From: an uncultured Anaerolineales bacterium
Lineage (GTDB): Bacteria > Chloroflexota > Anaerolineae > B4-G1 > SLSP01
Assembly (NCBI GenBank): GCA_964504195.1
Contig: CAZDDI010000005.1
Coordinates: forward strand, 1,175 to 65,174
Length of the DNA stretch: 64,000 nucleotides
Direction of reading: 5' to 3'
Shown: positions 34,322 through 60,124 of the stretch, one piece after another
How the letters are laid out: every line of letters starts with the position of its first letter
How positions within the stretch are numbered: the first letter of the stretch is position 1
Translations under genes and position numbers: made by a program
Notes under the pieces: generated by a model
Databases searched by the model: none
What the model was told of the DNA's origin: nothing
The model's input: the letters and a program-made list of their open reading frames with translations, nothing else

Positions 34322-34355
34322 TCTTTCTCAGATTTAGATATTAAGGAGGGGAAAA

Positions 34356-42588: not shown

Positions 42589-43248
42589 ATGCGCCACGTC
42601 CTGTGCATTGCCCCCCAAGAGAGTCAGGCCGAAGCCTTGAGCGCCGCCCTCGCCAGCGTGCCGGAGGTGCTGGTCGTCGGTATCTGTGATCCAGCGCAGG
42701 CCGCGCAACTGGCCCGCGTGGTCGGCGCGGATTTGCTCGTCGCCAGCCATGACGTAGCCTTGCCCGACACTGGTTTGCCCGTGTTCACTGCGCCGGAAGA
42801 TGCTGATCCGGCGGAAGCGTTGCAAGCCTACCTGGAAGCACACGCTAAGCCTGCGCCAGAATCTCCACCAGCGACACCCCGTCTGCCCTTTGCGCCGGTG
42901 ACGCGGCAAGTGCGCCTGGGCTTCTACGGCGTGCGCGGCGGCGTGGGCGTGACCACGGCTGCTGTCACCGCCGCCAAACTGCTGGCCGCACAGGGACAGC
43001 GCGTGGCGCTCTACGATGCCGCCCAACGCGGCGACCCGTACCTGCTGCTGGGCCTCACGCCGTCCGCTCAACCCGCCAGCGCGGAGGGGATCACGGTCTA
43101 CCCCGCGCTGCCCACCGCCGACGCTGAGGCCGCCGCGGCCAGCATCATTGATGGCGGACGGGAACGCCGGCTGTTTCCGGCGCGCTGGCTGGCGCTGGAG
43201 CACCCTCTGGCGGAAGCCGAAATTGCCAAACTGCTGGGATTAGCCTAA
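42589..43248 (+). CDS. CpaE/TadZ-like protein, degenerate (receiver-like N-domain + partial deviant P-loop)
   Basis: GVRGGVGVTT resembles the CpaE GxKGGVGKTT loop but the protein is short. GGAGGAG Shine-Dalgarno at MRHVL. Confidence 0.45.
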   Translation: MRHVLCIAPQESQAEALSAALASVPEVLVVGICDPAQAAQLARVVGADLLVASHDVALPDTGLPVFTAPEDADPAEALQAYLEAHAKPAPESPPATPRLPFAPVTRQVRLGFYGVRGGVGVTTAAVTAAKLLAAQGQRVALYDAAQRGDPYLLLGLTPSAQPASAEGITVYPALPTADAEAAAASIIDGGRERRLFPARWLALEHPLAEAEIAKLLGLA

Positions 43249-43256
43249 AACTCGAC

Positions 43257-43286
43257 TTGCATCCGCCCCCGGCGGTATGGTATAGT
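43257..43286 (+). promoter_or_regulatory. Sigma-70-like promoter with extended -10
   Basis: TTGCAT (43257-43262), 18-nt spacer, TGgTATAGT (43278-43286). Confidence 0.4.
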
Positions 43287-43292
43287 AAAAGA

Positions 43293-43487
43293 GGCGCGCA
43301 GGAACGGCCTGCGTCGCCCCGCGGGATGCCGTAAAGCGCACCCGTAATACACGCAGAGCGGGAATCCTACCAGCCCGCTGGCCCGGTGGCGCCGCGTAAA
43401 CCGCGCGCTCGGGCAATTCACTATAGGGGAGGCCCAGGACTGCCCGGAGTAATCCACTCCGGCACAGTCCGGGCCTCCCCATTTTTG
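43293..43487 (+). ncRNA. Candidate ~195-nt small RNA or terminated 5' leader (promoter to intrinsic terminator)
   Basis: Bounded upstream by the promoter above. Ends in a long hairpin GGGGAGGCCCAGGACTGCCCGGAGT-aatcc-ACTCCGGCACAGTCCGGGCCTCCCC (43427-43480) followed by ATTTTT. No credible ORF on either strand. Confidence 0.35.
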
Positions 43488-43529
43488 TAGCTATTCGCCA
43501 TCCAGTCCTGTTACGGAGTGTAGCCGGGG

Positions 43530-44081
43530 ATGTTATTGCTGAGCATCGGCGCCAAAGGCGGCTTAGGTACCACCACACTGGCCTATCAGATTAGCCAGTG
43601 CGCGGGAGCGCTGCCGCTGGACGCTGCCGACGGGCAACTGCTCCGGTGGGTGGGTGGGGCCGGCCTGGACCTGAGCGCCGTCCCGCAGTGGACCGCCAGC
43701 CGGCGCAGCCGCGCGGTCGAGCACCTCATCCGCACCCGGCCCGCGCTGCTGTGGACGCCCGCGTGTAACGTGTGGGCGGCGGCGGTGGCCGCCTTTGTGC
43801 GCGACCTGGCCGCCGTCGGGCACGTCAGTGTAGATGGCGGCCTGGCCCCGCCCGCGCCGCTGGTAGACCTGGCGACCGTCATCCTCATCGTCAGCAGCGA
43901 TGATCCAGTCGCACGCTGGCACGAACAACGCCTCAAACAACAGTGGCCGCAGGCGCGCGCCCTGGTCGGCGATGTCCAGGCCGCGGCGCCCGCCCTGGTG
44001 GAGCAATTACTGGGCGTCCCGCCGCGGCAAGCCTGGTGGAAGCAAGCCCGCTCCTGGCGGCCCACAGGGAAAAACGCCTGA
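43530..44081 (+). CDS. ParA/CpaE-like degenerate ATPase-domain protein
   Basis: N-terminal IGAKGGLGTTTLA deviant Walker A. 183 aa. Confidence 0.4.
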   Translation: MLLLSIGAKGGLGTTTLAYQISQCAGALPLDAADGQLLRWVGGAGLDLSAVPQWTASRRSRAVEHLIRTRPALLWTPACNVWAAAVAAFVRDLAAVGHVSVDGGLAPPAPLVDLATVILIVSSDDPVARWHEQRLKQQWPQARALVGDVQAAAPALVEQLLGVPPRQAWWKQARSWRPTGKNA

Positions 44082-44117
44082 ACCGGCTTTCCCTTTACGC
44101 AATAATCTGGAGGAAAT

Positions 44118-45029
44118 ATGCGCATTTTGAAATCCATTCAATTCTGGCTCGGTCTGCTCCTCGTCGGCGGGGCCTTTGTGGGCGTCCTGCTCTTCGCCCA
44201 ACTCACTACCCCGCCCACTTACGAAGTCGCCATTGCGACCCAGGACATCCCGGCGTATACCACGCTGCAAGACGCCTACACCTACGGCTACATTGTCTTG
44301 GATCGGCAGTCGTTCAGCCCGTCCTTGCTGCAAGTGGTGGTGTCGCCAGCCGCGCTGCAAGCCATGCTGGCCGATGGGGTCTTCGTCGAGACGGTGCGCG
44401 CGGGCGACGTGCTGAACCGGGGGCGCATCGCCACCGGGGAGAATGCGGAGAAAGTCCGCCGCCTGGCCCTGGCGCTCACTGACCCCGCGTTGGTCATCAA
44501 GTCCATCCCGGTCAGCGCCCAGAGCACGCCGTATATCGCCGTGGGCGATCTGGTAGACCTCTACGCGACGCTGGGCAGCGTGCGCGCCACGGAGTTAGCC
44601 ACAGCGACCGTGTTGCCCCTACCGCCCCACGTCACCCCACCGCCACCGACGCCCGCACCGCCACCAGATTTCGCGGTGTTGCTCCAGCCCGTGACCCTGA
44701 CGCTGCAATTGCCCGTGACCAAGCGGGTGGTGGGCGGAGCGCTGGTCGTCCGCGTCAACCGCGAGCAAATCCCGAATCCGCAGTACGGCGCGATGACCGC
44801 CGATGGGCAGGCCCCCGCGCCGTTCATCGCCGGCAACGTCATCAGCGTGGATGTGCTCGTCCCGGAGACCTCCGCTGAGGCGCTGGATTGGGCCGTGTTC
44901 AATGGCAAGATGTCCCTCGCCGTGCGGCCCGCGCTGTGGCGCGCGACGCTGGATGCCGGGCAAGCCCTGCCGGAGACGCCAGGATTCGCCTGGGAAGATT
45001 TCAATGCCGTGTTCTGGAGCGGCCGGTAG
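44118..45029 (+). CDS. cpaB: Flp pilus assembly protein CpaB/RcpC (N-terminal transmembrane + SAF domain)
   Basis: GGAGGAAATATG Shine-Dalgarno. N-terminal transmembrane segment, then the CpaB pattern IATQDIPAYTTL... Confidence 0.7.
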   Translation: MRILKSIQFWLGLLLVGGAFVGVLLFAQLTTPPTYEVAIATQDIPAYTTLQDAYTYGYIVLDRQSFSPSLLQVVVSPAALQAMLADGVFVETVRAGDVLNRGRIATGENAEKVRRLALALTDPALVIKSIPVSAQSTPYIAVGDLVDLYATLGSVRATELATATVLPLPPHVTPPPPTPAPPPDFAVLLQPVTLTLQLPVTKRVVGGALVVRVNREQIPNPQYGAMTADGQAPAPFIAGNVISVDVLVPETSAEALDWAVFNGKMSLAVRPALWRATLDAGQALPETPGFAWEDFNAVFWSGR

Positions 45030-45098
45030 TCTAGGTAGCCGGTAGTAGGTAAACGGTAGCAGGCAGACCGTCACTTCGTTTACCTTATTACCCTAATC

Positions 45099-45140
45099 CC
45101 GTCTACCGTCTACCGTCTACCGTCTACCGTCTACCGTGTA
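45099..45140. repeat. (CCGTCTA) heptamer tandem repeat, about 6 copies, 14 bp upstream of cpaE
   Basis: CCGTCTA x5 + CCGTGTA. Preceded (45030-45075) by several copies of the complementary CGGTAG motif, forming a mirrored arrangement. Confidence 0.85.
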
Positions 45141-45153
45141 CTGAGGAGCAGCC

Positions 45154-46521
45154 ATGGAACGCATCAAGATCGTCATTGGCACATCCGCCTGGGCCGACGC
45201 GCAAACGCTGGAACGCGCCCTGGCCGATACGCCGGAACTCCAGATCATCGCCGGGCCGACCACGGCTTCCGGCGTCTACCGCGACGCGACCGAGATGGAC
45301 GCCGATCTGGTGTTGCTTTCACCGACGTTGCCCGGTTTCCGACCCGACCTGGTGAGCGAGCTGCTGCACTCCGACGCCCGGCCCATTGCCAGTATTGGCC
45401 TGCTCGCGCCGCTGGAATCCCGCACCGACGAATTATTGGCGTTGGGCATGAAAGGCTACATCTCGCTGCCGCTCGACCCGGCCCAACTGCGCCGCCTGCT
45501 GGAACTCATCCCGGAAGCCGTCACCCAGGCCCGCGCCGAGCGCGCCAGCCGTAGTTACGTCCCGCTGGACACGCCCACGTTGCACACCGTCGCCGAGGCC
45601 GGCTGGCAACGCCTGGTCATCGCCCTGTGGGGCACCGGCGGCGGGGTGGGCAAAACCAGCCTGTCCATCAATTTGGCCGCGGCCCTGGGCGTACACGCCA
45701 AACGCAGTACCTTGCTCATGGATTTGGACATGACGCGCGGCGCGCTGGCCCCGCGATTGGGGCTGGTCCCGGAGCGCAACCTGTTCGCGTTGCTCAACGC
45801 CTTATTGCCCGATTACCTACGCCAGCAGAGCGGCAGTTGTCCGCCGCTGGCCCTCAAGGACAAGGTGCAACTGTGGGGCAGCGCCCGCGCTTCCAAACTG
45901 GACTGCCTGGGCGGGCTGCCGGCCATGCACATCGCGGGACTACCGCTCTTCCGGGAAGACCCGGCGCGCACGCAGGCATTACTCCGGGCGATCCTGGACA
46001 CCGCGCACAAGCAATATGATTTCGTGGTGCTGGACTTGGGGCCGGACATCAACAATGATGTACATTTTGCCGCGCTGGACGCCGCCGACCTGGTGCTCAC
46101 CGTGGTCCGCCCCGACCGGGCCGACATTTATTCCACGGCACAGACCGTGCCGCGCCTCAAGCAAGTCTTCGGCGAGGACATCGGCAAGTTCGAATTGGTC
46201 ATCAACCAGTGGAGCGAGGCCGCCGGCATCCGCTTGAAAGACCTGATTGCGGCCATCGGCATGAAGAAGTTCGCGCAAGTGCCCTACGACCCGGCCCTGA
46301 CCTACGCCAACAATCAACAGCGGCCCCTGGTGCTGGACAAGCCCAACCCCACGAGCGATGCCATCGTCTCAATGGCGGTGCGTTTTTTCCCGCCGCTGGG
46401 CCCGATCTGGGTGCGCCAGGGCGGGCGCGTCGAAGGCGACGCCGCCGCATTCAAAACGCCGGCGCGCCGCCCGGGGCCGGGCCTCTGGCAGCAAGTACGC
46501 GGCGTGTTCACGGAGAAGTGA
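45154..46521 (+). CDS. cpaE: CpaE/TadZ pilus-assembly ATPase-like protein (receiver-like N-domain + MinD/ParA-type domain)
   Basis: GTGGGVGKTSLSINLAAAL P-loop. 455 aa. Confidence 0.75.
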   Translation: MERIKIVIGTSAWADAQTLERALADTPELQIIAGPTTASGVYRDATEMDADLVLLSPTLPGFRPDLVSELLHSDARPIASIGLLAPLESRTDELLALGMKGYISLPLDPAQLRRLLELIPEAVTQARAERASRSYVPLDTPTLHTVAEAGWQRLVIALWGTGGGVGKTSLSINLAAALGVHAKRSTLLMDLDMTRGALAPRLGLVPERNLFALLNALLPDYLRQQSGSCPPLALKDKVQLWGSARASKLDCLGGLPAMHIAGLPLFREDPARTQALLRAILDTAHKQYDFVVLDLGPDINNDVHFAALDAADLVLTVVRPDRADIYSTAQTVPRLKQVFGEDIGKFELVINQWSEAAGIRLKDLIAAIGMKKFAQVPYDPALTYANNQQRPLVLDKPNPTSDAIVSMAVRFFPPLGPIWVRQGGRVEGDAAAFKTPARRPGPGLWQQVRGVFTEK

Positions 46522-46627
46522 TGCTTGTTGCTAGAAGCTGGTTGCTGGTATCCAGTCACGAGCATCGAGCAACCAGCATCCAGTAACAAGCAACGAGCAC
46601 CCAGTAACCAGCCTACAAGGAGTCCCT

Positions 46628-47962
46628 ATGTCCCAACCTTCCGCCTTTGCCCAACGGGTGGCCGCGCAAGCGACCACCCAGCAAGCCGATCCCTACGCGG
46701 GCTTGCTCGCCGCCGCGCGGGAACGCCTGGCCGCGCAGTTCAGCCTGGAAGCCCTACGCGCGCCCACCGCCGCACAGGAACAAGAAGCCGAGACCGCGTT
46801 GCGCGCTCTCGTCGCAGCCCAGGTCGCCAGCGCCGTCCAACAGGGGCGCCCCTTCGCCGAGAGCGGCGAACAGCTCCTGCTGCGTTTGCAATACGACATC
46901 TTCGGCTACGGGGTCATTACCCCGTATCTGAATACGCCCACCGTCGAGGAAATCATGATCAACGGCCCGGATGTGATCTGGATTGACGATGCGGAGCGAG
47001 GGATGTACCGCGCCAGCGCGCGCTTCGCCCATGCCCGCGAGGTGCAAAAACTGGTAGACCGCATCGCGGCGCGGCATGGCCGGCGCTTTGACCGCTCCAA
47101 TCCGCGCGTCAATGCCAAGATGCCCGATGGCAGTCGCCTGAACGCCGTGCTCGAACCGTTGGTAGACAACGTCCCCATCGCGGTCACCATTCGCCGCCAC
47201 CGCCTGGTGGCGCGCACGCTGGCCGACCTGGTGGAACTGGGCACGCTCACCGCCGAAGTCGCCGGGTTCTTGCAAGCCAGCGTCCTGGGCCGCCTGAACA
47301 TCATCGTGGCGGGCGGCACGGGGTCGGGTAAGACCAATACCCTCAACGCGCTGTGCGCGGTCTTGCCCCCGGAGGAGCGCGTCGTCACCGTCGAAGACAC
47401 GCCGGAGCTGCAATTGGCGCGGGACAACTGGCTGGCATTGGTCACTACCGAAGAAACCGAAGAAGGCCAGCGGGCCATTACCCTGGATGACCTGATCATC
47501 AACGCGCTGCGGATGCGGCCTGACCGCATCGTGACCGGCGAGGCGCGCGGCGCGGAAATCCGCTCGGTCTTGATGGCCGCCAACACCGGCCATGATGGGC
47601 AACTGCTCACCCTGCACGCCAACGGCGTCCACGAGATCGCCAGCCGGGTGGGGCAGATGTGGCAGTTGGCCGACTCCGGCATGGCCCCCGGCGTGGTCAC
47701 GCGCTATCTGGTGGATGCCTTCGACCTGGTGCTCTACATCGAGCGCATCACCGTGGCCGGGCAACGCCGCCGCGTCGTGCGGCAGGTAGCCGAACTCCTG
47801 CCCGCTCGCCAGATGGAAGGCGACACGCCCGCCGTGAATGTTCTGTGGCAGGATACCGGGAGTGGCTTGCAGTGGACGGGCCTGTATCCCGAAACCCTGG
47901 AAGAGCGCATCCGCCAGCACACCGGGCAGCGCGCTAATCTGCGCCAATATCTCAAGAGGTAG
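46628..47962 (+). CDS. cpaF: CpaF/TadA secretion ATPase (VirB11/GspE superfamily)
   Basis: Walker A IIVAGGTGSGKTNTLNAL. VTVEDTPEL. His-box GHDG. 444 aa. Confidence 0.85.
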   Translation: MSQPSAFAQRVAAQATTQQADPYAGLLAAARERLAAQFSLEALRAPTAAQEQEAETALRALVAAQVASAVQQGRPFAESGEQLLLRLQYDIFGYGVITPYLNTPTVEEIMINGPDVIWIDDAERGMYRASARFAHAREVQKLVDRIAARHGRRFDRSNPRVNAKMPDGSRLNAVLEPLVDNVPIAVTIRRHRLVARTLADLVELGTLTAEVAGFLQASVLGRLNIIVAGGTGSGKTNTLNALCAVLPPEERVVTVEDTPELQLARDNWLALVTTEETEEGQRAITLDDLIINALRMRPDRIVTGEARGAEIRSVLMAANTGHDGQLLTLHANGVHEIASRVGQMWQLADSGMAPGVVTRYLVDAFDLVLYIERITVAGQRRRVVRQVAELLPARQMEGDTPAVNVLWQDTGSGLQWTGLYPETLEERIRQHTGQRANLRQYLKR

Positions 47963-47966
47963 CCCG

Positions 47967-48899
47967 ATGTTCAAACGCAAAATGCCCTTGTGGGTCGTCA
48001 TCGCCACGCGGCAACGCCAAGTCCCGGAAGCCCTGGACGCCGCCCTGGCGCAATTGAGCGCGGTGCAGCTGGAACGCCGGGAAGCGCTGAGTTGCAGCGG
48101 GGCGTACCGCGCGCTCGCGGGCGCACACTTAGCGATTGTAGATACTGCCGACCTGCGCGCGGATGCCGCTGCTCCGGCGCTGGCAGTCGCCTTGCAGAGT
48201 CCCGGGCTAGTCGTCGTAGACAGCGCGACCTTCCTGGCCGCGCCGCTGCACTATCTGGAATTGGCCGCCGCCGCGCGCGGGTTGGGCGGGGTGTGGCCGC
48301 CGCGGCGCGGGGCATTCACGGCGCTGGCGGGGGGCGTGGGCAAGACGACGCTGGCCCTGGCGACCGCGCAGGCTTTTCACCGCGCAACGGGGTTGGCGGC
48401 GGTGGTCATCGAACTCAGCCCCGGCCCGGCGGCGCTGCTGGCCGTGACCGAAACGTCCGGGGCCGATCTGTACCAGATCATCACGCAAGGCGCGCCGTAT
48501 CCAGTGTGGCGCGGGGTGACGCTGGCCCCGCTGAACTGGGAGACCGCGCGGTTGCTCCCCACGGCGCAACTGACCGCGGCCTGGGAGGCGTTGGCGGCGC
48601 AGCATATCTTGACGCTTTACGATGCGCCGGCCGGGCATCCGTTGTGGGAACACGTCCAGGCGGACCTGACCCTGGTGCTGGCCGACCACCGCCCCGACGC
48701 GCAAGCCGCCGCCGTAGCAGTGGTGGCGCAGGTCCGCGCGCGGGGGCAGGCAGCGGCCCTGGTGCTCAACCGCGCGGGGCTGGGAGGGCGCTTAGCCCTG
48801 CCCGAAGCGCCCGTGGTGACCCTGGCCGCGGCGCGCGACCCGCAGCGCTGCGGCGCGCAACTCTTGCCGGCCCTCTATCCGGGCTGGCGGCGACGCTAA
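47967..48899 (+). CDS. Additional CpaE/ParA-like protein
   Basis: ALAGGVGKTTLALA deviant Walker A. Start at MFKRKM is internal to the listed ORF 47838. Confidence 0.5.
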   Translation: MFKRKMPLWVVIATRQRQVPEALDAALAQLSAVQLERREALSCSGAYRALAGAHLAIVDTADLRADAAAPALAVALQSPGLVVVDSATFLAAPLHYLELAAAARGLGGVWPPRRGAFTALAGGVGKTTLALATAQAFHRATGLAAVVIELSPGPAALLAVTETSGADLYQIITQGAPYPVWRGVTLAPLNWETARLLPTAQLTAAWEALAAQHILTLYDAPAGHPLWEHVQADLTLVLADHRPDAQAAAVAVVAQVRARGQAAALVLNRAGLGGRLALPEAPVVTLAAARDPQRCGAQLLPALYPGWRRR

Positions 48900-49108
48900 A
48901 ACATGCCGGAGGGAGTGGATGTTCCCTATACCTGTCTGGTTAATGCAGCTCCCCTTACGGGGCGCGGGGCTCGTCGCGCCGGGCCCGGAGCTGCCCCCTT
49001 TTGGGAGTCCGCCGGTGCTCATCCGGCTGGTGCTGGTGACGCTAGGGGCGCTGGGGGGCAGTTTCCTGCTCGGCGTGGGGTTAGCGGCGGGTTTCCCGGA
49101 GGATACCG

Positions 49109-50134
49109 ATGAGTCATAAGAGTCAAGCCGTACTCGGGTGTCTGGCGCTGCTGCTGGCGGCGCTGAGCGGGTATGCGGTGTGGCGGTTTTTCGACCGCTT
49201 GACGCTGACTACTACGCTGCCCGTGCCCAACCAGGCCATTCCCGCCGGGGCCTGGATTGAGGCCGGGATGCTCACGGAACGGGTGGTGCCGCGCGCGCTG
49301 GCCGCTGAGCCGGTGTATACCCGCGCCGCCGACCTGGTGGGCCGGGTCGCGCAGGTGCCGCTGTATCCGGGGCTGGTGGTGTACCAGGCGTATGCCGTGC
49401 CGCCGGCGCAGTACCGCCTGGTAGCCGATCCGACGCTAACGGTGATCTCCCTCCCCGTAGACCCGGCGCGGGCCGTGGGCGGGCAGCTGCAACCGGGACA
49501 CCAGATTGACCTGTGGCAAGTGCCGCTGGCGCGCGCCGGGGCCGCCGGGGAGGCCCCGCGCCTGACGCCGACGCTGGTGCTGAGCGCGGTGCAAGTCGTG
49601 GACGTGCGCGGGGCGTCCGGGCAGGCCGTGGCCCGCCAACCGCAGGCCGTGCCGGGGCAGGCGGCGGGGCAGAGTGCGCCTGCGGGGGCCGCTTTGCCGC
49701 TGCATATTCTGACTGTGGCCGTGCCGGTGTCGCAAACGCAGCCGCTCTTGAGCCTCATCGCCGCAGAGCACTCCCAGCAGGCCGCGCTGTGGGTAGCCCT
49801 GGCGCCGCTGGTGCGTCCGGCGGGGCCGGCGGCGGCGCTGCCGCCGAGTACCCCGCCCCCGCCCGGGGCCAGTCTCGCGCCGCCGGCCGCGCTGCCGGGA
49901 ATGCCCCGGTTAGTGGTGCGCCAGGTGCTGGGCACGGCGGGCGGCGGGAGCGCGGTATATGAGCGCCCCGGCGGGCCCCAAGTGGGAGAGTTGCCCGCGG
50001 GCGCGCTGGTCATAGTGCTGACCGGGCCGCAGCCGGACGCGGGGGGCGAGCTGTGGTATCACGTCACGCAACACGGCAGCCAGGCGGTCAGCGGCTGGAT
50101 GCGCGGGCCGGCGCTCAGTGCGGAGGAGCCCTGA
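49109..50134 (+). CDS. Second CpaB/RcpC-like protein with Pro/Ala-rich linker and C-terminal SH3-like tail
   Basis: GGAGGATACCG Shine-Dalgarno. N-terminal transmembrane segment. The TLTTTLPVPNQAIPAGAWI pattern parallels the first cpaB. Confidence 0.6.
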   Translation: MSHKSQAVLGCLALLLAALSGYAVWRFFDRLTLTTTLPVPNQAIPAGAWIEAGMLTERVVPRALAAEPVYTRAADLVGRVAQVPLYPGLVVYQAYAVPPAQYRLVADPTLTVISLPVDPARAVGGQLQPGHQIDLWQVPLARAGAAGEAPRLTPTLVLSAVQVVDVRGASGQAVARQPQAVPGQAAGQSAPAGAALPLHILTVAVPVSQTQPLLSLIAAEHSQQAALWVALAPLVRPAGPAAALPPSTPPPPGASLAPPAALPGMPRLVVRQVLGTAGGGSAVYERPGGPQVGELPAGALVIVLTGPQPDAGGELWYHVTQHGSQAVSGWMRGPALSAEEP

Positions 50135-53026: not shown

Positions 53027-53056
53027 CCTCCCGGGGCTGGGGAAAGGGAAAGCCAG

Positions 53057-53173
53057 ATGCGATTTCTGCGAGGCCAACACGCGGGCCAGCTGGCCGAATG
53101 GGTGGTGGGGGTGCTCCTGGCGGGCAGCCTGGGGTGCCTGATCCTCACCTGGTTAGCCGGGGCCGGCCCGTGA
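53057..53173 (+). CDS. flp: Flp-family pilin 1 (38 aa)
   Basis: Not in the supplied ORF track because it is shorter than 60 aa. MRFLRGQHAGQLAEWVVGVLL shows the Flp G-x4-E(W) processing motif, then a hydrophobic helix. GGAAAGGG Shine-Dalgarno. Confidence 0.65.
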   Translation: MRFLRGQHAGQLAEWVVGVLLAGSLGCLILTWLAGAGP

Positions 53174-53209
53174 TGGCGGGCGTTAATTCAAATTTCAAGG
53201 AGGGTGACG

Positions 53210-53383
53210 ATGCGTTTTCTTACCGGTACACACGCCGGCGATACGGTTGAATGGATTGTGGGCTTGATTCTGGTGGTGAGCGTGGTGGGTTCGATGATCT
53301 ACACCATTGCGCATTCCAGTAAAGTCCAGGGGGGGCTGACCAACGGGTGGATCGCGGGGATTCCCGCGCCGACTAGCCCGTAA
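53210..53383 (+). CDS. flp: Flp-family pilin 2 (57 aa)
   Basis: MRFLTGTHAGDTVEWIVGLILVV. AAGGAGGGTGA Shine-Dalgarno. Confidence 0.65.
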   Translation: MRFLTGTHAGDTVEWIVGLILVVSVVGSMIYTIAHSSKVQGGLTNGWIAGIPAPTSP

Positions 53384-53460
53384 GGCCAGCCCGGACCTGC
53401 GGGCAGCCTGCCCTGCCCGCTTAGGTAACCATTACTTTTTTGCAGTTGGAGGGAGGCACT

Positions 53461-53607
53461 ATGCGCTTTTTACAGGGCACGCGCGCGCAAAGCGCGGTGG
53501 AATGGTTGGTCGTAGCGGCCATTGTGGTGGGCGTGCTGGGCGGGCTGCTCTGGCAAATCCACGCGACGTTGGCGCTTAAATTGCGGGAGTATCACGATGC
53601 ACTCTGA
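53461..53607 (+). CDS. flp: Flp-family pilin 3 (48 aa)
   Basis: MRFLQGTRAQSAVEWLVVAAIVV. GGAGGGAGG Shine-Dalgarno. A hairpin GCGGGCAG/CTGCCCGC lies between pilin 2 and pilin 3. Confidence 0.65.
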   Translation: MRFLQGTRAQSAVEWLVVAAIVVGVLGGLLWQIHATLALKLREYHDAL

Positions 53608-54232
53608 AGTGGTCGCGTGCGGGTTGCCGCTGGGCGCCCTGGTGGTGCTGGGCTGGTTGGCGCCGTTGGCCTGGAGTGACGCGCGCACCGGCGCAGTCTC
53701 CGCGAAAGGCACGGCTATCCCGCTGGTACTCGTGGGCCTGCTCCGCGTGGGGCTGTGGCCCCCGGATGGGGCAGTCTGGCCCGGCGGGGTAGCGGTGACG
53801 GCGGCGTTAGCGATGCTGGTGTTGTCGGACACGCGCTGGGCCACGCTCCCGGCGGGCGTGGCCGCGCTCGGCCTGGGGCTGGGGGGGCCGGAGACGCAGG
53901 TGCTCGTGGGCAGTTGGTTTGCCGCTTTGCTGCTTACCTTATTGGGCATCTGGGGCGCGGGCGATGGCAAAATTTTCGCCACGTTGCTGGCGGTCTTTCC
54001 CGATGCGCGGCTCCTCGGCGCGCTGGGGCTCGCCGTGACGGTGGGCAGCGGCCTGGCCGTGCTGCGCCGGGATGGCCTGACCACCCCCTGGGTCTTGCAG
54101 GCGGTCCTGCACGCGGCGCTGCGGGGGGAGTTTCCGGCCCGCACGGGCGCGGTGGGGACGCACCCGACCGTGCCGTGGCTGGCGCTGGGGACGCTGGGCT
54201 ATCTGGCCCTGCGCCTGGGAGGCATTTGGTGA
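53597..54232 (+). CDS. tadV: Prepilin peptidase TadV/CpaA (A24-family aspartyl protease)
   Basis: Polytopic. GAGDGKIF matches the GxGDxK motif of CpaA. The start overlaps the pilin 3 stop. Confidence 0.7.
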   Translation: MHSEVVACGLPLGALVVLGWLAPLAWSDARTGAVSAKGTAIPLVLVGLLRVGLWPPDGAVWPGGVAVTAALAMLVLSDTRWATLPAGVAALGLGLGGPETQVLVGSWFAALLLTLLGIWGAGDGKIFATLLAVFPDARLLGALGLAVTVGSGLAVLRRDGLTTPWVLQAVLHAALRGEFPARTGAVGTHPTVPWLALGTLGYLALRLGGIW

Positions 54233-54648
54233 AGGCGCGCGGCCCTGACGAACGCGGGCAGGCCGGGATCGAGATGCTGGTGGTGCTGCTCCTGCTTGTC
54301 CCGTTGGTGTGGGGCGGGCTGCGTTTGACCCAGGGGGTCGGCGCGCGGCACGCGCTGGACACGGCGACGGCAACCGCGGCGCGCCACATCGCGCTAGACC
54401 CCGGCGCGTGGGAGAGCGCCTTAATCCGGGTGCAGGCTGGCGTAGATGGCGCGTTGCTGGGCCCGGTAGGGCCGGTAACGTGCCAGGTGACGGCGGCGGG
54501 CGTTCCGGTAGTGCCTACCGGATTAGCCTTTGGCACGCCGTTTGCCGTGACGTGCAGCGTACCGTTCTCGGGGCAATTACCTTTTGCGGCAGCCGCGCCG
54601 CGGACATTGACCAGCACGCAGTGGGCCATCCTGGAACGCTATCCGTGA
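54229..54648 (+). CDS. TadE-like pseudopilin
   Basis: N-terminal ERGQAGIEMLVVLLLLVPL is the TadE signature. GTG start with GTGA overlap. Confidence 0.55.
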   Translation: MKARGPDERGQAGIEMLVVLLLLVPLVWGGLRLTQGVGARHALDTATATAARHIALDPGAWESALIRVQAGVDGALLGPVGPVTCQVTAAGVPVVPTGLAFGTPFAVTCSVPFSGQLPFAAAAPRTLTSTQWAILERYP

Positions 54649-54667
54649 TGCGCGGAGGACGCTAATT

Positions 54668-55297
54668 TTGGAAGGAGCGCGCTATGTTTCACCAATTGGG
54701 GGGCCCCTAATGGGCGTGGGGTTCTTACCGGCGGGGGGCCGCGACCGGTCTGGGGCTCCCGACGCGCACTGCGGGGGGCCGGGGCGGCCCCCGCGGCAGG
54801 CGGACGGGCAAGCAACCCTGGCCGCCGCGCTGAGCCTGCTGGTACTGGTGCTCCTGCTGGCCGGACTGCTCGACCTGGCGCAGAGCTGGGCGACCCGCAG
54901 TTGGGCGTACCGCGTGGCCGAGGCGGCGGCCCTGGCGGGGGTGGCGCAAGGCCGCGACTATGGCGCGTATGTGGCGACCGGGGTGCCGGCATTGCACCCG
55001 CTGGTGGCGGAGATGGCGGCGGGCACGACGCTGGAAACGGCCCTGGCCGCGCGTGGGCAGCTCAGCGGCGCGACATACGTTATTCGCGTCCATCCCACGC
55101 CCGGAATGTTAACCTATCCCGGCTATCCACCCGTCCCGCACGCGGCCCAGCCGCCAGGCGACTGGACGCCGACGGCCCCGGCGGTAGCGGTCTATCTGAC
55201 GCTGCCGCGCACCCCCGGGTTCTACGGGTGGGTGAACGGGAACGCGCCGGCACGGCTCCATGTGTTCGCCGCGGCGGAACTGGTGACCGCGCCATGA
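54668..55297 (+). CDS. TadE/TadG-like protein
   Basis: RQADGQATLAAALSLLVLVLLLAG N-terminal helix. GGAGGA upstream. Confidence 0.45.
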   Translation: MEGARYVSPIGGPLMGVGFLPAGGRDRSGAPDAHCGGPGRPPRQADGQATLAAALSLLVLVLLLAGLLDLAQSWATRSWAYRVAEAAALAGVAQGRDYGAYVATGVPALHPLVAEMAAGTTLETALAARGQLSGATYVIRVHPTPGMLTYPGYPPVPHAAQPPGDWTPTAPAVAVYLTLPRTPGFYGWVNGNAPARLHVFAAAELVTAP

Positions 55298-56436
55298 AGC
55301 CGGGGCGACGCTGGCTATGGGGCGGGCTCCTCTTGCTGCTCCTGGGCGGGCTGCGCGCGGATGCCGCGCCCGCGCCCGCCACCGGGCGGACGTATACGCT
55401 GTATGCCCAGGCCGAGTTCACCGGCCCCGCGTGTGGCGCGGGGTGGCAGTGGCAGGATGGCTGGGGCGCGGCGACTTATAGCTGCACTGGGGACACCGTG
55501 CGCCTGCTGCCCGCCAGCGCCACGACTCAGTATCGCACGACCGGTTTGCTGTGGCGCAACGATCTCTTGCCCAGCAGCGGCAATCTCGCTATCGAAACCC
55601 GCGTGCGGCTGGCCGCCTATGCCGGGTATGGCAATGATCCGCTGGTGTTGCTGCCCAGCCCCTATCACGGCGAACGGCAATGCTACGACGGGGTGCAGGG
55701 CCATCACCAGAATGCGCCGGCCTGTCCGGTAGCGCCGCCCCCGGGCTACTGGGGCGTCCACGGCGCGGGCAATGCACATACCCTGTATATCGGGCTGTTC
55801 GGCCAGGACTACCTGGAAATCCCGGCGACCACCCACTGGCATATCGTGCGCTGGGAGTATACCGCGGCGACACACCAGTGGGTCATGCGAGTCTTCCGCA
55901 CGGCAGCGCAGCCCCCCGGAACGCAGCCGTATGCCGGGCCGCCCACGGCGACGTATACCGTGACGGCGGCGCTGCGCCCGCAAGCGGTGCGCCTGGGGCA
56001 TCCGCTGTATTTCACCGGGCCCGAGGGCGCTTATGGCCCTGGCTATTGGAGCAGCCCGGAGACGGATTATCTGCGGGTCTGGACGTGGACCGCCTATGCG
56101 CTGGCCCCGACGCTCACCCGGGAGTATCCCTGGCTGGTCTGGTATGGCCCGCAGGTGGGCCAGCCGACCCAAGTGCTGCGCGGGACGGGTTACACGCCCC
56201 AGGGCGCGGTCACGGTGCAGGTGGCGGGGCCCGCCGGGTGCGGCCGGCACACCTATCTGGTCACCGCGGACGCGGCTGGGGCGTGGACCCTGGACGCGCT
56301 GAGCAGCGGCGAGGGGTGGTTCGGCACGGCTTGCCGGGGGACCTGGCAGGCCACGGCTACGGATGCGGCCAGCGGCTTGGGCAGTCCGGCCGCTACCTGG
56401 ACGGTGGCCTGGTTTCCGGTGCGGCGGACGCGCTGA
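55294..56436 (+). CDS. Secreted hypothetical protein (signal peptide, Trp/Gly/Tyr-rich), possibly pilus-associated
   Basis: MKPGRRWLWGGLLLLLLGGLRADAA signal peptide. ATGA overlap with the upstream gene. Confidence 0.5.
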   Translation: MKPGRRWLWGGLLLLLLGGLRADAAPAPATGRTYTLYAQAEFTGPACGAGWQWQDGWGAATYSCTGDTVRLLPASATTQYRTTGLLWRNDLLPSSGNLAIETRVRLAAYAGYGNDPLVLLPSPYHGERQCYDGVQGHHQNAPACPVAPPPGYWGVHGAGNAHTLYIGLFGQDYLEIPATTHWHIVRWEYTAATHQWVMRVFRTAAQPPGTQPYAGPPTATYTVTAALRPQAVRLGHPLYFTGPEGAYGPGYWSSPETDYLRVWTWTAYALAPTLTREYPWLVWYGPQVGQPTQVLRGTGYTPQGAVTVQVAGPAGCGRHTYLVTADAAGAWTLDALSSGEGWFGTACRGTWQATATDAASGLGSPAATWTVAWFPVRRTR

Positions 56437-56494
56437 GGGGCGCGGGGTAGGGACAGGGGCAGGCTCATATTTACCGAAGGGAGGCATTAGATTC

Positions 56495-57385
56495 ATGACT
56501 TTAGCTACTACAGTCTGGTTTTGGGCGGCTCTGGCTGCGGCCGGGGTATGGCTGGCCTGGCTGGCCGCTACGACCCGCGCCTATGTGCGCGTGGCCCCGG
56601 TGACGCAGTCCGGACTGCTGGCGCGGCTGGACGCCCGCTTGCAAGCTGCGGAGGTACCCGTGACGGCCCGCGAGTTCTTGCTGACGGGCCTGGCGATTGG
56701 CGCGGGGTTGGCCGGGGGAGCGCTGCTGGTGCTGGGGCCGACGGTGCTGGCGGCGGTCGTGCTCCTGAGCGGGCCGGTGATTTACTGGCAGGTGTGGGCC
56801 GCGAAACTGGCGCGCTACCGGCGTGCGTATCTACTGGCGCTGGACAAGGCCATTGAGACGCTGCTCCGCGCCTACACGGCCAATCCCAATCTCAACGCGG
56901 CCTTGCAGGAAGCCACGCCCTATATGCTGGAACCCGTGCGCAGCGATTTCGTGCAGGTGGTCACCGCTTTGCAGACCGGCACCAGCATCAGCGACGCGGT
57001 GTATCAGGTGGCTGAGCGTCGCGCTAACCCCTATTTCGACATGCTGGCCGAAGCCCTGGCGGTGCGCGAGCAGCAGGGCGGCAAACTCAAGAGCGTGCTC
57101 CAGGGCTTGCAGAGCCTCATGCACGGCGTCATCCAGATTCAGAACGAAATCCGCGCCCGGCAAACGCAGCCCCAACTAGAGGGGGCGATTGTCGCAGTAG
57201 CGCCGTTCGGCTTCTTGATCCTGCTCAAGGTGGGCATGGCGCAATACGAGGGCGGTTTCTACGCCACCCTGGAAGGGCAGCTGGTGCTGGCAGTGGCGAT
57301 TATCTTTTCCGGCCTGGCCTATCTGCTGGCGCAGAAAATCGCCCGCGCGGGCCTGGATCTGGAAGCCCAAGGGGGGGGCCGATGA
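56495..57385 (+). CDS. Second TadB-like platform protein
   Basis: GAAGGGAGG Shine-Dalgarno. Three transmembrane regions with a cytoplasmic T2SS-F-like domain. Confidence 0.6.
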   Translation: MTLATTVWFWAALAAAGVWLAWLAATTRAYVRVAPVTQSGLLARLDARLQAAEVPVTAREFLLTGLAIGAGLAGGALLVLGPTVLAAVVLLSGPVIYWQVWAAKLARYRRAYLLALDKAIETLLRAYTANPNLNAALQEATPYMLEPVRSDFVQVVTALQTGTSISDAVYQVAERRANPYFDMLAEALAVREQQGGKLKSVLQGLQSLMHGVIQIQNEIRARQTQPQLEGAIVAVAPFGFLILLKVGMAQYEGGFYATLEGQLVLAVAIIFSGLAYLLAQKIARAGLDLEAQGGGR

Positions 57386-58284
57386 CCGCGGCGCACTGGT
57401 GGTGGGCGGGCCTGGCCGCCCTGGGGACCGGCTTGCTGGTCACCGCCGGCCAGCGCCGCGCGCCGCGGGCGCTGGGGCTACCGGACCGGGGACTGGCCCA
57501 GCGCCCGCTGGTAGACCGGCTCTTTGGCGCGTGGGCGGAAGGGCTATTGCAGCGCCGCAATGCGCCGGACATAGAGACTCGCCTCCAGCAGGCCGGGCTG
57601 TGGCAACGCGCGGGCGCGCTCTATCCCGATGTCCGCACTTTCTATGCCTATTGCCTGGCAAGCGCGACGCTGCTGGCCGGGCTGGGGCTGGGCGGGGGCC
57701 TCTTGCTGGCGCTGCTGGGCGAGCTGCCGCTTACCCTGGCGGTGGGGTTGGCCGTGGGGCTGGGCGCGCTGGGCGGGTTTCTGCCGGTCGGGGATCTGCG
57801 CAGCCAAATCGCGCACCGCGATGATCGCATGGTGGCCGATATGGCGTCCGCGCTTGACCGGCTGGCGAATTTCCTGGCGGCGGGCTATCCCTTGCCCTAC
57901 GCCATCCACGAGTTGGCCCAGCGGCCCGGCGGCGTGTTCGTGGCCGAGTTACGGGAGGTGGCGGCGCATTACGACGTGAGCGGCGATTTGGTGGCCGGGG
58001 TAGAAGCCCTCTTGGAAACCAACGGCCATCTGCCGCCGCTGCTGCCGTTTGCCACGCTGCTCAAGACCGCGACACGGCTGGGCGGCGGCGTCAGCGAAGC
58101 GCTGCGCGCCCTGGCGGCAGAGCTGCGCGCGGAACTGACCCAACGCATCACGGCGCGGGGCTATCGCAACACGGTCTTGATGATCGTGCCGGCGTTTTTC
58201 GCCATCCTCGCCACGCTGTTGGTGTTGGCCGCGCCGGGCGCCCTGCGCGCCTTTGCCAGCCTGGGCGCGGGCGGCGGGTGGTAA
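57382..58284 (+). CDS. Second TadC-like platform protein
   Basis: ATGA overlap with the upstream gene. Polytopic with a T2SS-F-like central domain. Confidence 0.6.
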   Translation: MTAAHWWWAGLAALGTGLLVTAGQRRAPRALGLPDRGLAQRPLVDRLFGAWAEGLLQRRNAPDIETRLQQAGLWQRAGALYPDVRTFYAYCLASATLLAGLGLGGGLLLALLGELPLTLAVGLAVGLGALGGFLPVGDLRSQIAHRDDRMVADMASALDRLANFLAAGYPLPYAIHELAQRPGGVFVAELREVAAHYDVSGDLVAGVEALLETNGHLPPLLPFATLLKTATRLGGGVSEALRALAAELRAELTQRITARGYRNTVLMIVPAFFAILATLLVLAAPGALRAFASLGAGGGW

Positions 58285-58408
58285 GCCGCGCCGCGGGGGC
58301 GCAAAATCTACCGGAGGGGGTGTGGCGCTAGTACGACGGGGAGTAGCGCGCCCCAGCTGCTTCGACTCAGGTTTTAATTTCACCAATAGGAGGTTTTGAC
58401 CAACGCTT

Positions 58409-58690
58409 ATGAGATGGACGTTACGAGTAGCGGGCCTGGAGCAGGCGGTGCTCCGCCGGTATTGCCAGGCCACTGCCCACCCGGTAGCGCGGCGCTGGGC
58501 CGCGGTATGCCAGGGGCGGATACGGACAGCGCTCGCCCGCGAAGAAGGGCAAGGGCTGTTGGAGTATATTATCGCCATCGCCGGCGTGTTTGTCGTGGCG
58601 GCGGCGGTGTTGGCGCTGTATCGCGCCGTGCAGGGCAAGTACGGGGAGGCGACCACCAGTGTCAATTCCCTGAGTATTTCTGCGCCCTGA
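58409..58690 (+). CDS. Flp-like pilin with an unusually long leader
   Basis: EEGQGLLEYIIAIAGVFVVAAAV is a canonical Flp G/xxxxEY + helix. AGGAGGT upstream. The true start may be internal. Confidence 0.5.
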   Translation: MRWTLRVAGLEQAVLRRYCQATAHPVARRWAAVCQGRIRTALAREEGQGLLEYIIAIAGVFVVAAAVLALYRAVQGKYGEATTSVNSLSISAP

Positions 58691-58746
58691 CTTAACCAGA
58701 GCGGGCGCCGGCCACCGGCGCCCGCTCCCCTGAAGGAGGTATCCCG

Positions 58747-59172
58747 ATGACCCAAATTTCTCCCCCGCCTGCGCGCCAGAGTGAGCGCGGGCAAGCCTTG
58801 TTGGAAATGTTGTTGGTGCTGCCGGTCTTTCTGTTTTTGACCGGCGCCATCCTCGGCATCGGCTGGACGTACTGGGTCCGCCTGAATCACGCGGCCTACG
58901 CGCAAGAAGTGACCACGCTGGCCGGCAAAGCCAATGCCTTGGCCGCCGGGGCCGCCGGGGCGGCGCGCTTTATGGCCGGGAGCAATGTGGACTTCGGCGC
59001 GCACACGACGGTCTCCCACCTCACCCTCCAGCGTGGCGTCCAGGCGACCGCGCGCTATCCGGGGCCGGAGTTGCTGCTGTGGGACCTGGCCGCGCCAGAA
59101 ATCACGGCGGGCGCGTTCACCCGCTGGGAACAGTTCTATGCCGGGCCGCCGGCGGCGGGCGCCTTCGAATGA
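58747..59172 (+). CDS. TadE-like pseudopilin
   Basis: SERGQALLEMLLVLPVFLFL. AAGGAGGT Shine-Dalgarno. Confidence 0.6.
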   Translation: MTQISPPPARQSERGQALLEMLLVLPVFLFLTGAILGIGWTYWVRLNHAAYAQEVTTLAGKANALAAGAAGAARFMAGSNVDFGAHTTVSHLTLQRGVQATARYPGPELLLWDLAAPEITAGAFTRWEQFYAGPPAAGAFE

Positions 59173-59609
59173 GGCGCGGGGCCCGGCGCTACCCGGATGA
59201 ACGCGGGCAAGCCGCTTTGGAAATGCTCCTGGCGCTGCCGGTGCTCATGTTAATCCTGGCCGCCGTGTTGGGCTTTGGGCGGGTGCTCTTCGTGGCCCTG
59301 GCCGTAGACCAGGCGGCTTTCAGCGGGGGACGCTTCGCGGCGGAGAGCCTCAATCCGTATCAGGCGGCGTATCAAGCCGCCCGCGCGACGGCCGGGAATC
59401 TGACCGCCAGCGGCCTGGACGCGACGGCCGCGACCTGGCAACTCCAGGCGGCGGGCTGGCAGCGCGGTGGGGCCGTGACCAACCGCGTGGGGGTGGCCGT
59501 ACCAGTGGGCGACATCCCGCTGGCCCCGCTGCTGTTCGGCGGGGAGCGGGTGTCCGTGTGGCAGCAAGCTACGTTCCGCGTGCAGCGCTGGAAGTCGCGG
59601 TGGCAATGA
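59169..59609 (+). CDS. TadE-like pseudopilin
   Basis: DERGQAALEMLLALPVLMLIL. ATGA overlap with the upstream gene. Confidence 0.55.
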   Translation: MRRGARRYPDERGQAALEMLLALPVLMLILAAVLGFGRVLFVALAVDQAAFSGGRFAAESLNPYQAAYQAARATAGNLTASGLDATAATWQLQAAGWQRGGAVTNRVGVAVPVGDIPLAPLLFGGERVSVWQQATFRVQRWKSRWQ

Positions 59610-60124
59610 GGCGGATGACGGACGACGGACGACCGCCGACGGCAGCAGCGCCCTGCCCCGCGCCATTGCAAGTAACTGACAGCAGTCAGCGGTCACCGCT
59701 CGCAACCTGCTTGCAAGATGAGCGCGGCCAGGTGCTCGTGTGGTTGCTGATTCTGCTACCGCTTTTGCTGCTCATGGCGGGCATCCTCATCGAAGGCGGC
59801 CTCATGTACCGCGCCTACCGCCTGGCGCAATTGGCCGCCGATAGCGCCGCGCACGCCGCCGCGCAGGAACTTGATACGGCGCTGTACCTGCGCACCGGGC
59901 GCGTGGCCTTGACCCCGCAGGCCGCCGCAGTCGCGCAAGCCTTCGCCGCGCCCAACGCGCGCGGTCCGATCACTTGCGGGACGCCGCAGATCTGGGCCAA
60001 CCAGGTGGAACTCATCTGCCAGGCTACGTTACACCCGGTAGTGCTGGTCAATGGCCCGCCGGTGCGTGTGACGGTGCGCGGCCGCGCCCGCCCCGCGTGG
60101 GGCGCGCTGCTCGAGGGCGAGTGA
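59606..60124 (+). CDS. TadG/TadE-like pseudopilin
   Basis: DERGQVLVWLLILLPLLLLMAG. ATGA overlap with the upstream gene. Confidence 0.55.
   Translation: MRRMTDDGRPPTAAAPCPAPLQVTDSSQRSPLATCLQDERGQVLVWLLILLPLLLLMAGILIEGGLMYRAYRLAQLAADSAAHAAAQELDTALYLRTGRVALTPQAAAVAQAFAAPNARGPITCGTPQIWANQVELICQATLHPVVLVNGPPVRVTVRGRARPAWGALLEGE

Follow-up and report, generated by a model that had tools for sequence, protein, structure and literature searches.

Bacterial genomes commonly have several Tad loci, so two sets of Tad genes are in themselves unsurprising. In Micrococcus luteus two tad clusters lie 1.2 Mbp apart, each with its own TadA, and a single Flp competence pilus requires all the genes of both (PMC4322843; PMC6916266); flp is found in one cluster, a single tadV lies outside both, and there is no TadZ (PMC4322843). 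Among the Chloroflexota, Tad loci of the Chloroflexales have the arrangement rcpC-tadZABC, tadEEG, and flp, and it has been suggested that, in filamentous members of the phylum, Tad pili power adhesion and surface motility (PMC7332563). A Tad locus has also been reported in Litorilinea aerophila (10.1101/2025.08.19.671072), and Tad loci without secretins in about one third of 3,780 Chloroflexota genomes (PMC12488501). The locus considered here lies in a 64,000-nt stretch of DNA (the window) from an uncultured Anaerolineales bacterium (assembly GCA_964504195.1, contig CAZDDI010000005.1, positions 1,175 to 65,174 of the forward strand). It contains two sets of Tad genes. One, in two parts referred to as blocks A and B, matches the Chloroflexota reports, including the lack of a secretin and the multiple tadZ copies; the second, divergent block C, its pairing with a canonical operon, and the nested gene order are absent from them (PMC7332563; 10.1101/2025.08.19.671072; PMC12488501).

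Every gene between 42.0 and 62.9 kb is on the + strand, and the Tad array spans from about 42036 to about 62882 (Table 1). A preliminary description, made from the sequence alone, had placed its limits at 42589 and 60124, but conserved genes continue past both. The gene calls made here agree with the public JGI calls on an identical metagenome contig (JGI 3300033177, Ga0334883_1000223, 109 kb). The inventory comprises two CpaF ATPases, two TadB/TadC platform pairs, two CpaB-like proteins, four ParA/TadZ-like proteins, four small Flp pilins, one TadV prepilin peptidase, and five TadE/TadG-like pseudopilins, all intact, with no frameshifts or internal stops in either set. The preliminary description is confirmed in that this is a compound locus, whose two ATPases (both intact), two platforms, and several pilins lie in a single tightly packed and co-oriented array; also confirmed are its three tandem Flp pilins plus a fourth with a long leader, its tadV, its TadE/TadG-like genes, of which it had counted at least five, and its two degenerate genes among four CpaE/ParA-like ones (ParAa and ORFb lack the P-loop lysine; CpaE and ParAc have GKT). 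Its statement that most junctions are ATGA or GTGA overlaps was too strong: these account for seven of 23, with one further overlap of 1 nt and another of 11 nt.

The gene order is not one set followed by the other, as had been implied, but interleaved. Block A (DUF4352, ParAa, ORFb, CpaB1, CpaE, CpaF1) and block B (TadB2, TadC2, flp4, TadE2, TadE3, TadG2, lipoprotein, Pro-rich protein) are the first and second parts of what is read from sequence comparison as a canonical Tad operon. Nested between them, 4 nt beyond cpaF1 and 58 nt before tadB2, is block C (47967–56436; ParAc, CpaB2, CpaF2, TadB1, TadC1, flp1-3, TadV, TadE1, TadG1, Sec), by the same comparison a fast-evolving, Chloroflexota-restricted divergent module, so that the order in the window is A-C-B. 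No gene from 42036 to 62882 had a family match in Pfam or NCBIfam to a secretin (RcpA/CpaC), TadD, or RcpB. The locus is of the secretin-less (monoderm-type) Tad form, as expected, since Chloroflexota Tad systems lack secretins (PMC12488501). A consensus scan of 42.4–62.4 kb for promoters and terminators found one and eight, respectively, compared to 1.3 and 10.6 in shuffled sequences; with no excess, it is silent on operon structure.

The explanation favored here, held with roughly even confidence, sees the locus as composite: two Tad (type IVc/Flp) modules of the secretin-less Chloroflexota type, diverged long ago, which would encode two Flp-pilus machines, co-transcribed and sharing TadV. 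The two sets had been described as an internal duplication; the comparisons point instead to an ancient divergence. CpaF1 and CpaF2 are 27.6% identical. By BLASTP, TadC1 and TadC2 match with E = 0.03 at best, and similarity between TadB1 and TadB2 is undetectable. Family hidden Markov models (HMMs) split the ATPases cleanly, at 520–600 bits for the cognate model and 135–230 for the other (CpaF2 itself scores 552 on its own model and 191 on that of CpaF1). In a bootstrapped neighbor-joining tree (42 sequences, 338 columns, simple distance model) the CpaF2 family is monophyletic and the CpaF1 clade separate (88/100), both among bacterial Tad ATPases but not as sisters. A CpaF phylogeny had been suggested as a means of telling recent duplication from distinct origins, and the separate clades speak against recent duplication. 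The CpaF2 family also falls apart from most sampled archaeal ATPases, with weak support; two archaeal sequences (L064, L075) branch beside bacterial Tad.

Each copy has orthologs in other Chloroflexota, at 37–85% identity. One of the related loci used for comparison (given here as L plus a number), L008, carries both ATPases, so the split must predate lineages whose CpaF2 is only 43% identical. The CpaF2 family includes about 115 clusters at 41–73% identity, all from metagenomes or metagenome-assembled genomes (MAGs), and those with names are Chloroflexi or Anaerolineae. A scan of one genome per species likewise found it in Chloroflexota MAGs and in one MAG labeled Thermogutta, where a binning error is the probable cause. 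After these, the best matches to CpaF2, at no more than 35% identity, are from Actinomycetota, Bacillota, Alphaproteobacteria, and archaea. A recent horizontal import of block C was considered and rejected: the region has a G+C content of about 70%, and G+C at third codon positions is uniform, at 0.74–0.88 outside of flp2 (0.69) and flp3 (0.735).

Divergent as they are, both sets are by their sequences true Tad systems. The top solved-structure match for CpaF1 is the Caulobacter CpaF (206 bits, 6.5e-60), and its top NCBIfam match is TIGR03819 (TadA family). For CpaF2 the same structure scores highest, at 98 bits (4.8e-27), compared to 68 for afGspE, 65 for VirB11, and 58 for FlaI. Full VirB11-type Walker motifs had been claimed for both. 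In CpaF1 the motifs, read off the sequence, are GGTGSGKT (Walker A), VEDTPEL (Asp box), DRIVTGE (Walker B), and LHANG (His box). CpaF2 keeps Walker A, Walker B, and His-box residues that are invariant in 14 family members, down to 37% identity, but its Asp box is a variant, ETFxE in place of EDxxE, with Thr replacing Asp and both Glu residues invariant. The weaker proteins of the middle set were assigned by building family alignments from related loci and comparing profiles (hhalign), since CpaB2, TadB1, TadC1, flp1-3, TadV, TadE1, and TadG1 are either below family thresholds or without matches. NCBIfam searches with flp2, flp3, TadV, TadE1, TadG1, TadB2, TadC2, flp4, TadE3, and TadG2 gave a sole match, that of TadG2 to TIGR03816 (1.2e-3).

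When the window proteins were mapped onto about 35 related loci, the order ParAc-CpaB2-CpaF2-TadB1-TadC1-Flp(2-3)-TadV-TadE1-TadG1-Sec was found to be kept in about 30 Chloroflexota MAG loci. About 21 have enough flanking sequence for comparison; some ten of these have a second ATPase/platform set adjoining block C, while about 11 have none upstream, within 7–10 kb for L019, L022, L027, L028, L029, L031, L033, L034, L036, and L065 and within 4.5 kb for L011. Because of its constant order, and because these 11 are without an upstream partner in the surveyed flanks, block C may be regarded as an autonomous unit. The same can be said of the canonical operon, since blocks A and B are contiguous in L089 and L092. 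Where both modules are present their arrangement varies: A-B-C, with block B upstream of ParAc, in L008 (where CpaE-CpaF1 precede block B), L009, L021, L024, L025, and L037; A-C-B in the window and its 71–82% relative L007; and C'-A-B in L092. The locus had been called unusual, which holds in part, but other Chloroflexota MAGs repeat this pairing of modules. The partner in L014 and L038 is of a third, more distant type, so block C can apparently pair with different partner modules. In these two loci (L014 4231–7900, L038 3–2400) a CpaF-like ATPase (214–232 bits on the CpaF1 HMM) and faint TadB/TadC-like open reading frames (ORFs) are found just upstream of ParAc.

Relatives of the canonical operon show what can become of the cpaF1/tadB2 junction. 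In L089 (59% identical in CpaF1), neither block C nor an A24 peptidase is found within 10 kb. In L092 (67%), a block-C-like set without CpaF2 lies directly upstream of DUF4352-ParAa...CpaF1; its order (205–5440) is a 550-aa HerA/DUF87-like P-loop ATPase, TadV-like, CpaB2-like, TadB1-like, TadC1-like, and a 37-aa Flp gene. In L091 and L093 (83–85%), the junction holds only a gene for a 42-43-aa MRFL-type pilin and TadV, the latter 52% identical to that of the window. Judged from CpaF1, CpaE, TadC2, and TadV, the window, L007, and L091 are about equidistant, with L089 as an outgroup. The simplest history suggested by these comparisons has block C entering the cpaF1/tadB2 junction in a common ancestor of the window, L007, and L091, with the L091/L093 lineage then deleting it except for a pilin gene and tadV.

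Several side observations concern the same loci. The canonical operon seems to be an insertion hot-spot in relatives: L090 (46% identical in CpaF1) has six unrelated surface-protein genes at its cpaF/tadB junction (11435–17914), including Peptidase_S74 and TSP3/Big domains; L091 has two serine-recombinase genes between cpaE and cpaF (8392–10001); and L091 and L093 both have three large genes, one for a CLIPPER-domain protein, between tadE2 and tadE3. In L007 (MAG MFD02416.bin.2.12), ParAa, CpaB1, and TadB2/TadC2 are split across frames (2729–4998, 17638–19427), which look more like assembly indel errors than real pseudogenes. MAG CAZNRX01 has two different copies of block C (L017 and L036, with CpaF2 52% and 37% identical to that of the window), so either there are two such systems in one genome or this is a binning artifact.

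If the composite reading is correct, a block rearrangement would have put C between cpaF1 and tadB2, giving A-C-B where more distant relatives have A-B-C, and all genes of the array would now be co-transcribed. Each CpaF hexamer would dock on its own TadB/TadC platform and polymerize its own Flp pilins, with its own TadE/TadG minor pilins as primer and its co-inherited CpaB and ParA-like protein as partners. TadV would cleave both classes of pilin, at (A or G)/xxxxEW in flp1-3 and G/QxxxE(Y or M) in flp4 and the TadE proteins (a slash marks the cleavage site). The cell may then make Flp filaments of two kinds, used to attach to surfaces or to move, and dependent on one shared peptidase. The combined loci have a sole A24 gene, tadV, which is sited inside block C. 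The canonical operon is without a peptidase of its own in every locus examined, and tadV is kept at the same position where the rest of block C was lost (L091, L093). Sharing is suggested on account of this gene content and retention. Flp-type pilins and TadE/TadG proteins are encoded separately in each module.

Some points weigh against two independent machines with a common peptidase. The count of one TadV covers the locus, and a second could be encoded elsewhere in the genome; similarly, block C loci with no partner were surveyed over ±10 kb, and a partner module might lie elsewhere, as with the M. luteus clusters 1.2 Mbp from each other (PMC4322843). Support in the neighbor-joining tree is modest (the CpaF2 node is labeled 60/100). 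The L092 set without CpaF2 blurs the independence of the modules, and so does L009, where two genes for block-C-type pilins (MRFL..EW) stand beside a flp4-type pilin gene in block B (1703–2483), implying that pilin genes have moved between modules.

These last two loci also count in favor of the main rival reading, a serious though less likely one, that this is one interdependent system as in M. luteus. The modules would then be non-redundant halves of one pilus apparatus, with both ATPase/platform sets needed for one Flp filament, or for a single filament that draws on a mixed pool of pilins. The M. luteus precedent itself, two seemingly complete clusters with all genes essential for one pilus (PMC4322843; PMC6916266), makes this worth considering, as do the recurrence of adjacency in three different orders, the 4-nt gap between cpaF1 and parAc, the single TadV in the locus, and the persistence in L092 of block C platform genes near CpaF1 without CpaF2. 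However, each module has its own major and minor pilin genes, whereas in M. luteus flp is in one cluster only. The canonical operon also remains intact in L091 and L093, which have lost the block C motor and platform, and occurs in L089 with nothing of block C within 10 kb, and roughly ten block C loci are without a partner in upstream flanks of 7–10 kb. A bolder proposal, judged less likely than not, is that block C represents a previously unrecognized, deep-branching, Chloroflexota-specific Tad lineage functionally locked to a co-resident canonical Tad system, for which it would supply the only prepilin peptidase and with which it would exchange pilins and platform parts, as a composite nanomachine with two motors and two platforms. 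The range of intermediates is consistent with this: block C alone, A-B-C, A-C-B, C' without an ATPase, and a remnant of flp plus tadV.

Two ATPases in one operon might also, by analogy with PilB/PilT, be specialized motors acting on the same filament, for example in extension and retraction. Tad systems normally have one bifunctional CpaF (PMC6920026, PMC11300603), and a second motor could split its roles. This seems improbable, since each motor travels with its own platform, as well as with its own CpaB, ParA-like protein, and pilins. The two modules moreover separate in evolution, and CpaF2 has kept all its catalytic motifs, with no mark of a retraction-only enzyme.

Still less probable is a second set in decay or without function, or one that is part of some other system (type II or type IV secretion, or an archaeal Epd-like pilus). 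Such a view might draw on the eight of 11 block C proteins that are without a match or below threshold in curated Pfam and NCBIfam searches, on the short and unconserved flp1, and on the partial loss of block C in relatives. Both outcomes had been raised in the preliminary description, and both were looked for. Pseudogenization was rejected, as there are no frameshifts or internal stops, and about 30 lineages have kept the synteny and the catalytic residues. A different secretion system was rejected as well: CpaF2 matches TadA/CpaF best in both NCBIfam and the PDB, with FlaI, afGspE, and VirB11 much lower; TadB1 and TadC1 are TadB- and TadC-type, respectively, by hhalign; and Tad hallmarks are seen in the Flp motif, the platform divided into TadB + TadC, and an A24 peptidase without a methyltransferase domain. 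That one Tad operon was recently duplicated in tandem within the locus, which could account for the same gene categories occurring twice in one array, is the least credible reading and is refuted by the low identities and BLASTP results given above, the orthologs of each copy at 37–85% in other Chloroflexota, the separate ATPase clades, and the HMM separation.

Table 1. Gene content of the Tad array and its conserved neighbors in the window, with family matches (E-values) and hhalign comparisons.
Gene	Assignment	Coordinates	Strand	Matches and remarks
DUF4352	secreted DUF4352/DUF3426 protein (block A)	42036–42587	+	Pfam DUF3426 2.9e-7, DUF4352 5.3e-7
ParAa	TadZ-like; receiver-like N-terminus + ParA-like domain (A)	42589–43248	+	weak CbiA and KGGVGR-variant AAA matches
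ORFb	short ParA-like (A)	43530–44081	+	KGGLGTTT, no GK[ST]; no Pfam or NCBIfam match
CpaB1	divergent CpaB/RcpC-like (A)	44118–45029	+	TIGR03177 3.5e-4, below cut-off
CpaE	CpaE/TadZ; atypical receiver-like N-terminus + ParA-type ATPase (A)	45154–46521	+	GGGVGKTS; AAA_31 1.7e-12, CbiA 1.1e-10, ParA 9.4e-7, TIGR03815 2.1e-10
CpaF1	canonical Tad ATPase (A)	46628–47962	+	Pfam T2SSE 6e-43
ParAc	TadZ-like, first gene of block C	47967–48899	+	weak CbiA/ParA matches; begins 4 nt past cpaF1 stop
66-aa ORF	doubtful gene	48919–49119	+	JGI-called; no family match
CpaB2	SAF/RcpC-type, SH3-like C-terminus (C)	49109–50134	+	RcpC 2.3e-5, SAF 3.6e-3, TIGR03177 2.9e-11, all sub-cut-off
CpaF2	divergent Tad ATPase (C)	50134–51369	+	Pfam T2SSE 2.2e-18; TIGR03819 3.7e-42 (best NCBIfam)
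TadB1	TadB-type platform (C)	51366–52241	+	no Pfam match; hhalign TadB2 97.7% vs TadC2 59%
TadC1	TadC-type platform (C)	52238–53026	+	T2SSF 1.8e-4, sub-threshold; hhalign TadC2 97.6% vs TadB2 83%
flp1	extra 38-aa Flp-like pilin, doubtful gene (C)	53057–53173	+	MRFLRGQHA/GQLAEW, then hydrophobic stretch
flp2	57-aa Flp pilin, conserved type ending GIPxP (C)	53210–53383	+	strong ribosome binding site; orthologs across module C loci
flp3	48-aa Flp pilin, conserved type ending NDAL (C)	53461–53607	+	11-nt overlap with tadV start
TadV	A24-type aspartic prepilin peptidase, 211 aa, no methyltransferase domain (C)	53597–54232	+	Pfam A24 2.4e-3, sub-threshold
TadE1	pseudopilin (C)	54229–54648	+	ERG/QAGIEM; TadE 3.5e-3, sub-threshold; family HMM matches in module C loci
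TadG1	TadG-like pseudopilin (C)	54710–55297	+	Pfam Tad 2.8e-3, sub-threshold; hhalign TadE1~TadG1 95%
Sec	signal-peptide protein, last gene of block C	55294–56436	+	beta-sandwich N-domain, conserved Cys-containing C-terminal domain; no Pfam match
TadB2	canonical platform (block B)	56495–57385	+	T2SSF 2.4e-10, above threshold
TadC2	canonical platform (B)	57382–58284	+	T2SSF 1.3e-9, above threshold
flp4	long-leader Flp pilin (B)	58409–58690	+	EEG/QGLLEY; leader 34–47 aa, ortholog leaders 16–30 aa
TadE2	pseudopilin (B)	58747–59172	+	TadE 1.5e-5, above threshold
TadE3	pseudopilin (B)	59169–59609	+	TadE 4.2e-8, above threshold
TadG2	TadG-like pseudopilin (B)	59606–60124	+	Pfam Tad 3.5e-8, TadE 6.9e-7, above threshold; TIGR03816 1.2e-3
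Lipoprotein	lipoprotein-like, conserved block B member	60224–60886	+	no Pfam match; orthologs after TadG2 in L089, L092, L009
Pro-rich protein	Pro-rich, Cys/Trp-rich membrane-anchored protein, last gene of block B	~60897–62357	+	no Pfam match
138-aa protein	conserved downstream neighbor	62466–62882	+	44% ortholog directly after Pro-rich gene in L089 (18025–18471); Pfam SSB_1 E = 0.25

In block A, orthologs of the DUF4352 protein directly precede ParAa in L091, L089, L007, and L092 and mark it as a conserved upstream neighbor. ParAa itself has a degenerate P-loop without lysine (GVRGGVGVTT), and the lysine is missing in all L089–L091 orthologs too; the ORFb motif is kept in five orthologs at 35–63% identity. 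Since orthologs likewise lack the lysine, both are conserved degenerate ParA-like proteins and not pseudogenes. CpaB1 has orthologs at 40–85% identity and aligns with the CpaB2 family over about 105 N-terminal residues (hhalign 96%).

ParAc, at the start of block C, is related to CpaE by profile comparison (hhalign 82%) and is syntenic in about 25 loci. Of 23 family members, 22 have a P-loop that reads GG[VT]G[KR]T, while that of L019 has Cys where the others have Lys/Arg. There is no room for the 66-aa ORF in L007, where ParAc and CpaB2 abut. The L092 ortholog of CpaB2 has SAF, RcpC, and SH3_3 matches. TadB1 is rare, with 41 representative clusters (12 at E ≤ 1e-10) in 1.84 billion proteins. 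The flp1-3 products share the pattern MRFLxGxxA/xxxxEW followed by a hydrophobic stretch, while relatives mostly have G/xxxxE[YW]. The short flp1 is lineage-specific, being missing from the closest relative, L007, and JGI made no call for it. For TadV the assignment is strengthened by orthologs, with that of L093 above the A24 threshold (30.4 bits) and that of L008 having a precomputed A24 match at E ≤ 1e-5. Within the family D28 and D123 (of GxGDxK) are invariant in 25 of 25 sequences, and G122 and K125 are found in 23 and 24 of them. Sec has six homologs, and partial tblastn matches at the same relative position in about 12 surveyed loci. Its AlphaFold2 model has a pLDDT of 68, and a Foldseek search of the PDB matched it only weakly to lectin/adhesin-like beta-sandwich structures (TM ~0.2).

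In and beyond block B, Pfam Flp_Fap was reached by none of the window pilins, with one L008 ortholog giving a weak match. The start of the Pro-rich protein was chosen at MTRWWV; it has orthologs in L089 (59%), L092 (51%), and L008, L009, L021, and L037 (28–34%). The possibility that the 138-aa protein is an SSB-like link to DNA uptake was considered, but it is not similar to the genuine SSB that L089 encodes and has no match among PDB sequences; a single-sequence AlphaFold2 model has a pLDDT of 51, and Foldseek found nothing significant. The L089 gene in question, a bona fide SSB gene (PF00436; 6470–6928), is found between ParAa and ORFb.

Elsewhere in the window, at 39501–41632, an insertion sequence element with a DDE_Tnp_1 transposase (40040–41134, - strand) interrupts a lactate/malate dehydrogenase gene, leaving an Ldh_1_N part at 39501–40061 and an Ldh_1_C part at about 41288–41632. 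Islands of low G+C (0.39–0.44) are found at 2000–4000, 30000–36000, and 38000–40000, compared to a background of 0.65–0.73. The block at 29.5–36 kb, with genes for an AMP-binding enzyme (29542–31032) and an asparagine synthase (31050–33035), was probably acquired horizontally. At 8907–11560 a gene for an AAA_25 (RepA/DnaB-like) ATPase adjoins one for a DnaG-type primase (CHC2 zinc finger + Toprim), a pairing that typifies plasmid-like replicons or integrated mobile elements. There are two STAND NTPases, an NB-ARC protein (12586–14076, - strand) and an AAA_16-TPR protein (14991–17801, + strand), and beside them a 2237-aa beta-helix/NosD-repeat protein (17835–24548) and a 1397-aa protein without a Pfam match (25180–29373).

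As this locus shows, some Chloroflexota lineages carry a second, strongly diverged Tad module, largely missed by standard profile thresholds, that recurs beside the canonical operon and carries the peptidase that the latter appears to need. The natural intermediates, in which block C stands alone, in tandem, nested, without its ATPase, or as a remnant with the peptidase only, bear on how interdependence arises between paralogous type IV filament machines, a question that the two essential tad clusters of M. luteus had also raised. The interest is a specialist one, as this is a lineage-specific variant of a well-known system and does not reveal a new kind of machine.

Set beside the canonical Tad/Flp systems, flp-tad of Aggregatibacter actinomycetemcomitans and cpa of Caulobacter crescentus, the window locus shares the CpaF/TadA ATPase, split TadB + TadC, TadZ/CpaE with a receiver-like N-terminus, CpaB/RcpC, TadE/F/G pseudopilins, a small Flp with a G/XXXXEY-type site, and a TadV without a methyltransferase domain. 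Unlike them, it has no secretin (RcpA/CpaC), TadD, or RcpB; it doubles every core part except TadV; it has two extra P-loop-degenerate ParA-like genes; and its flp1-3 have Ala at -1 and Trp for Tyr after the Glu. The likeness to M. luteus tad-1/tad-2 lies in a monoderm-type system with two seemingly complete Tad sets, each with its own ATPase and platform, and a single prepilin peptidase. In the window, however, a single fused array holds both sets in nested order, with tadV inside one of them, Flp genes in both, and four TadZ/ParA-like genes. No Pfam match to ComEA or ComEC was found among the Tad-locus proteins and the ten upstream ORFs of at least 394 aa that were scanned. In Pseudomonas aeruginosa one peptidase, PilD/XcpA, serves both type IVa pili and type II secretion. 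The arrangement proposed here, in which sharing is suggested by the genes present, would be similar in having one peptidase for two assembly machines with distinct sets of pilins, but here both machines are of the Tad type and encoded in one array.

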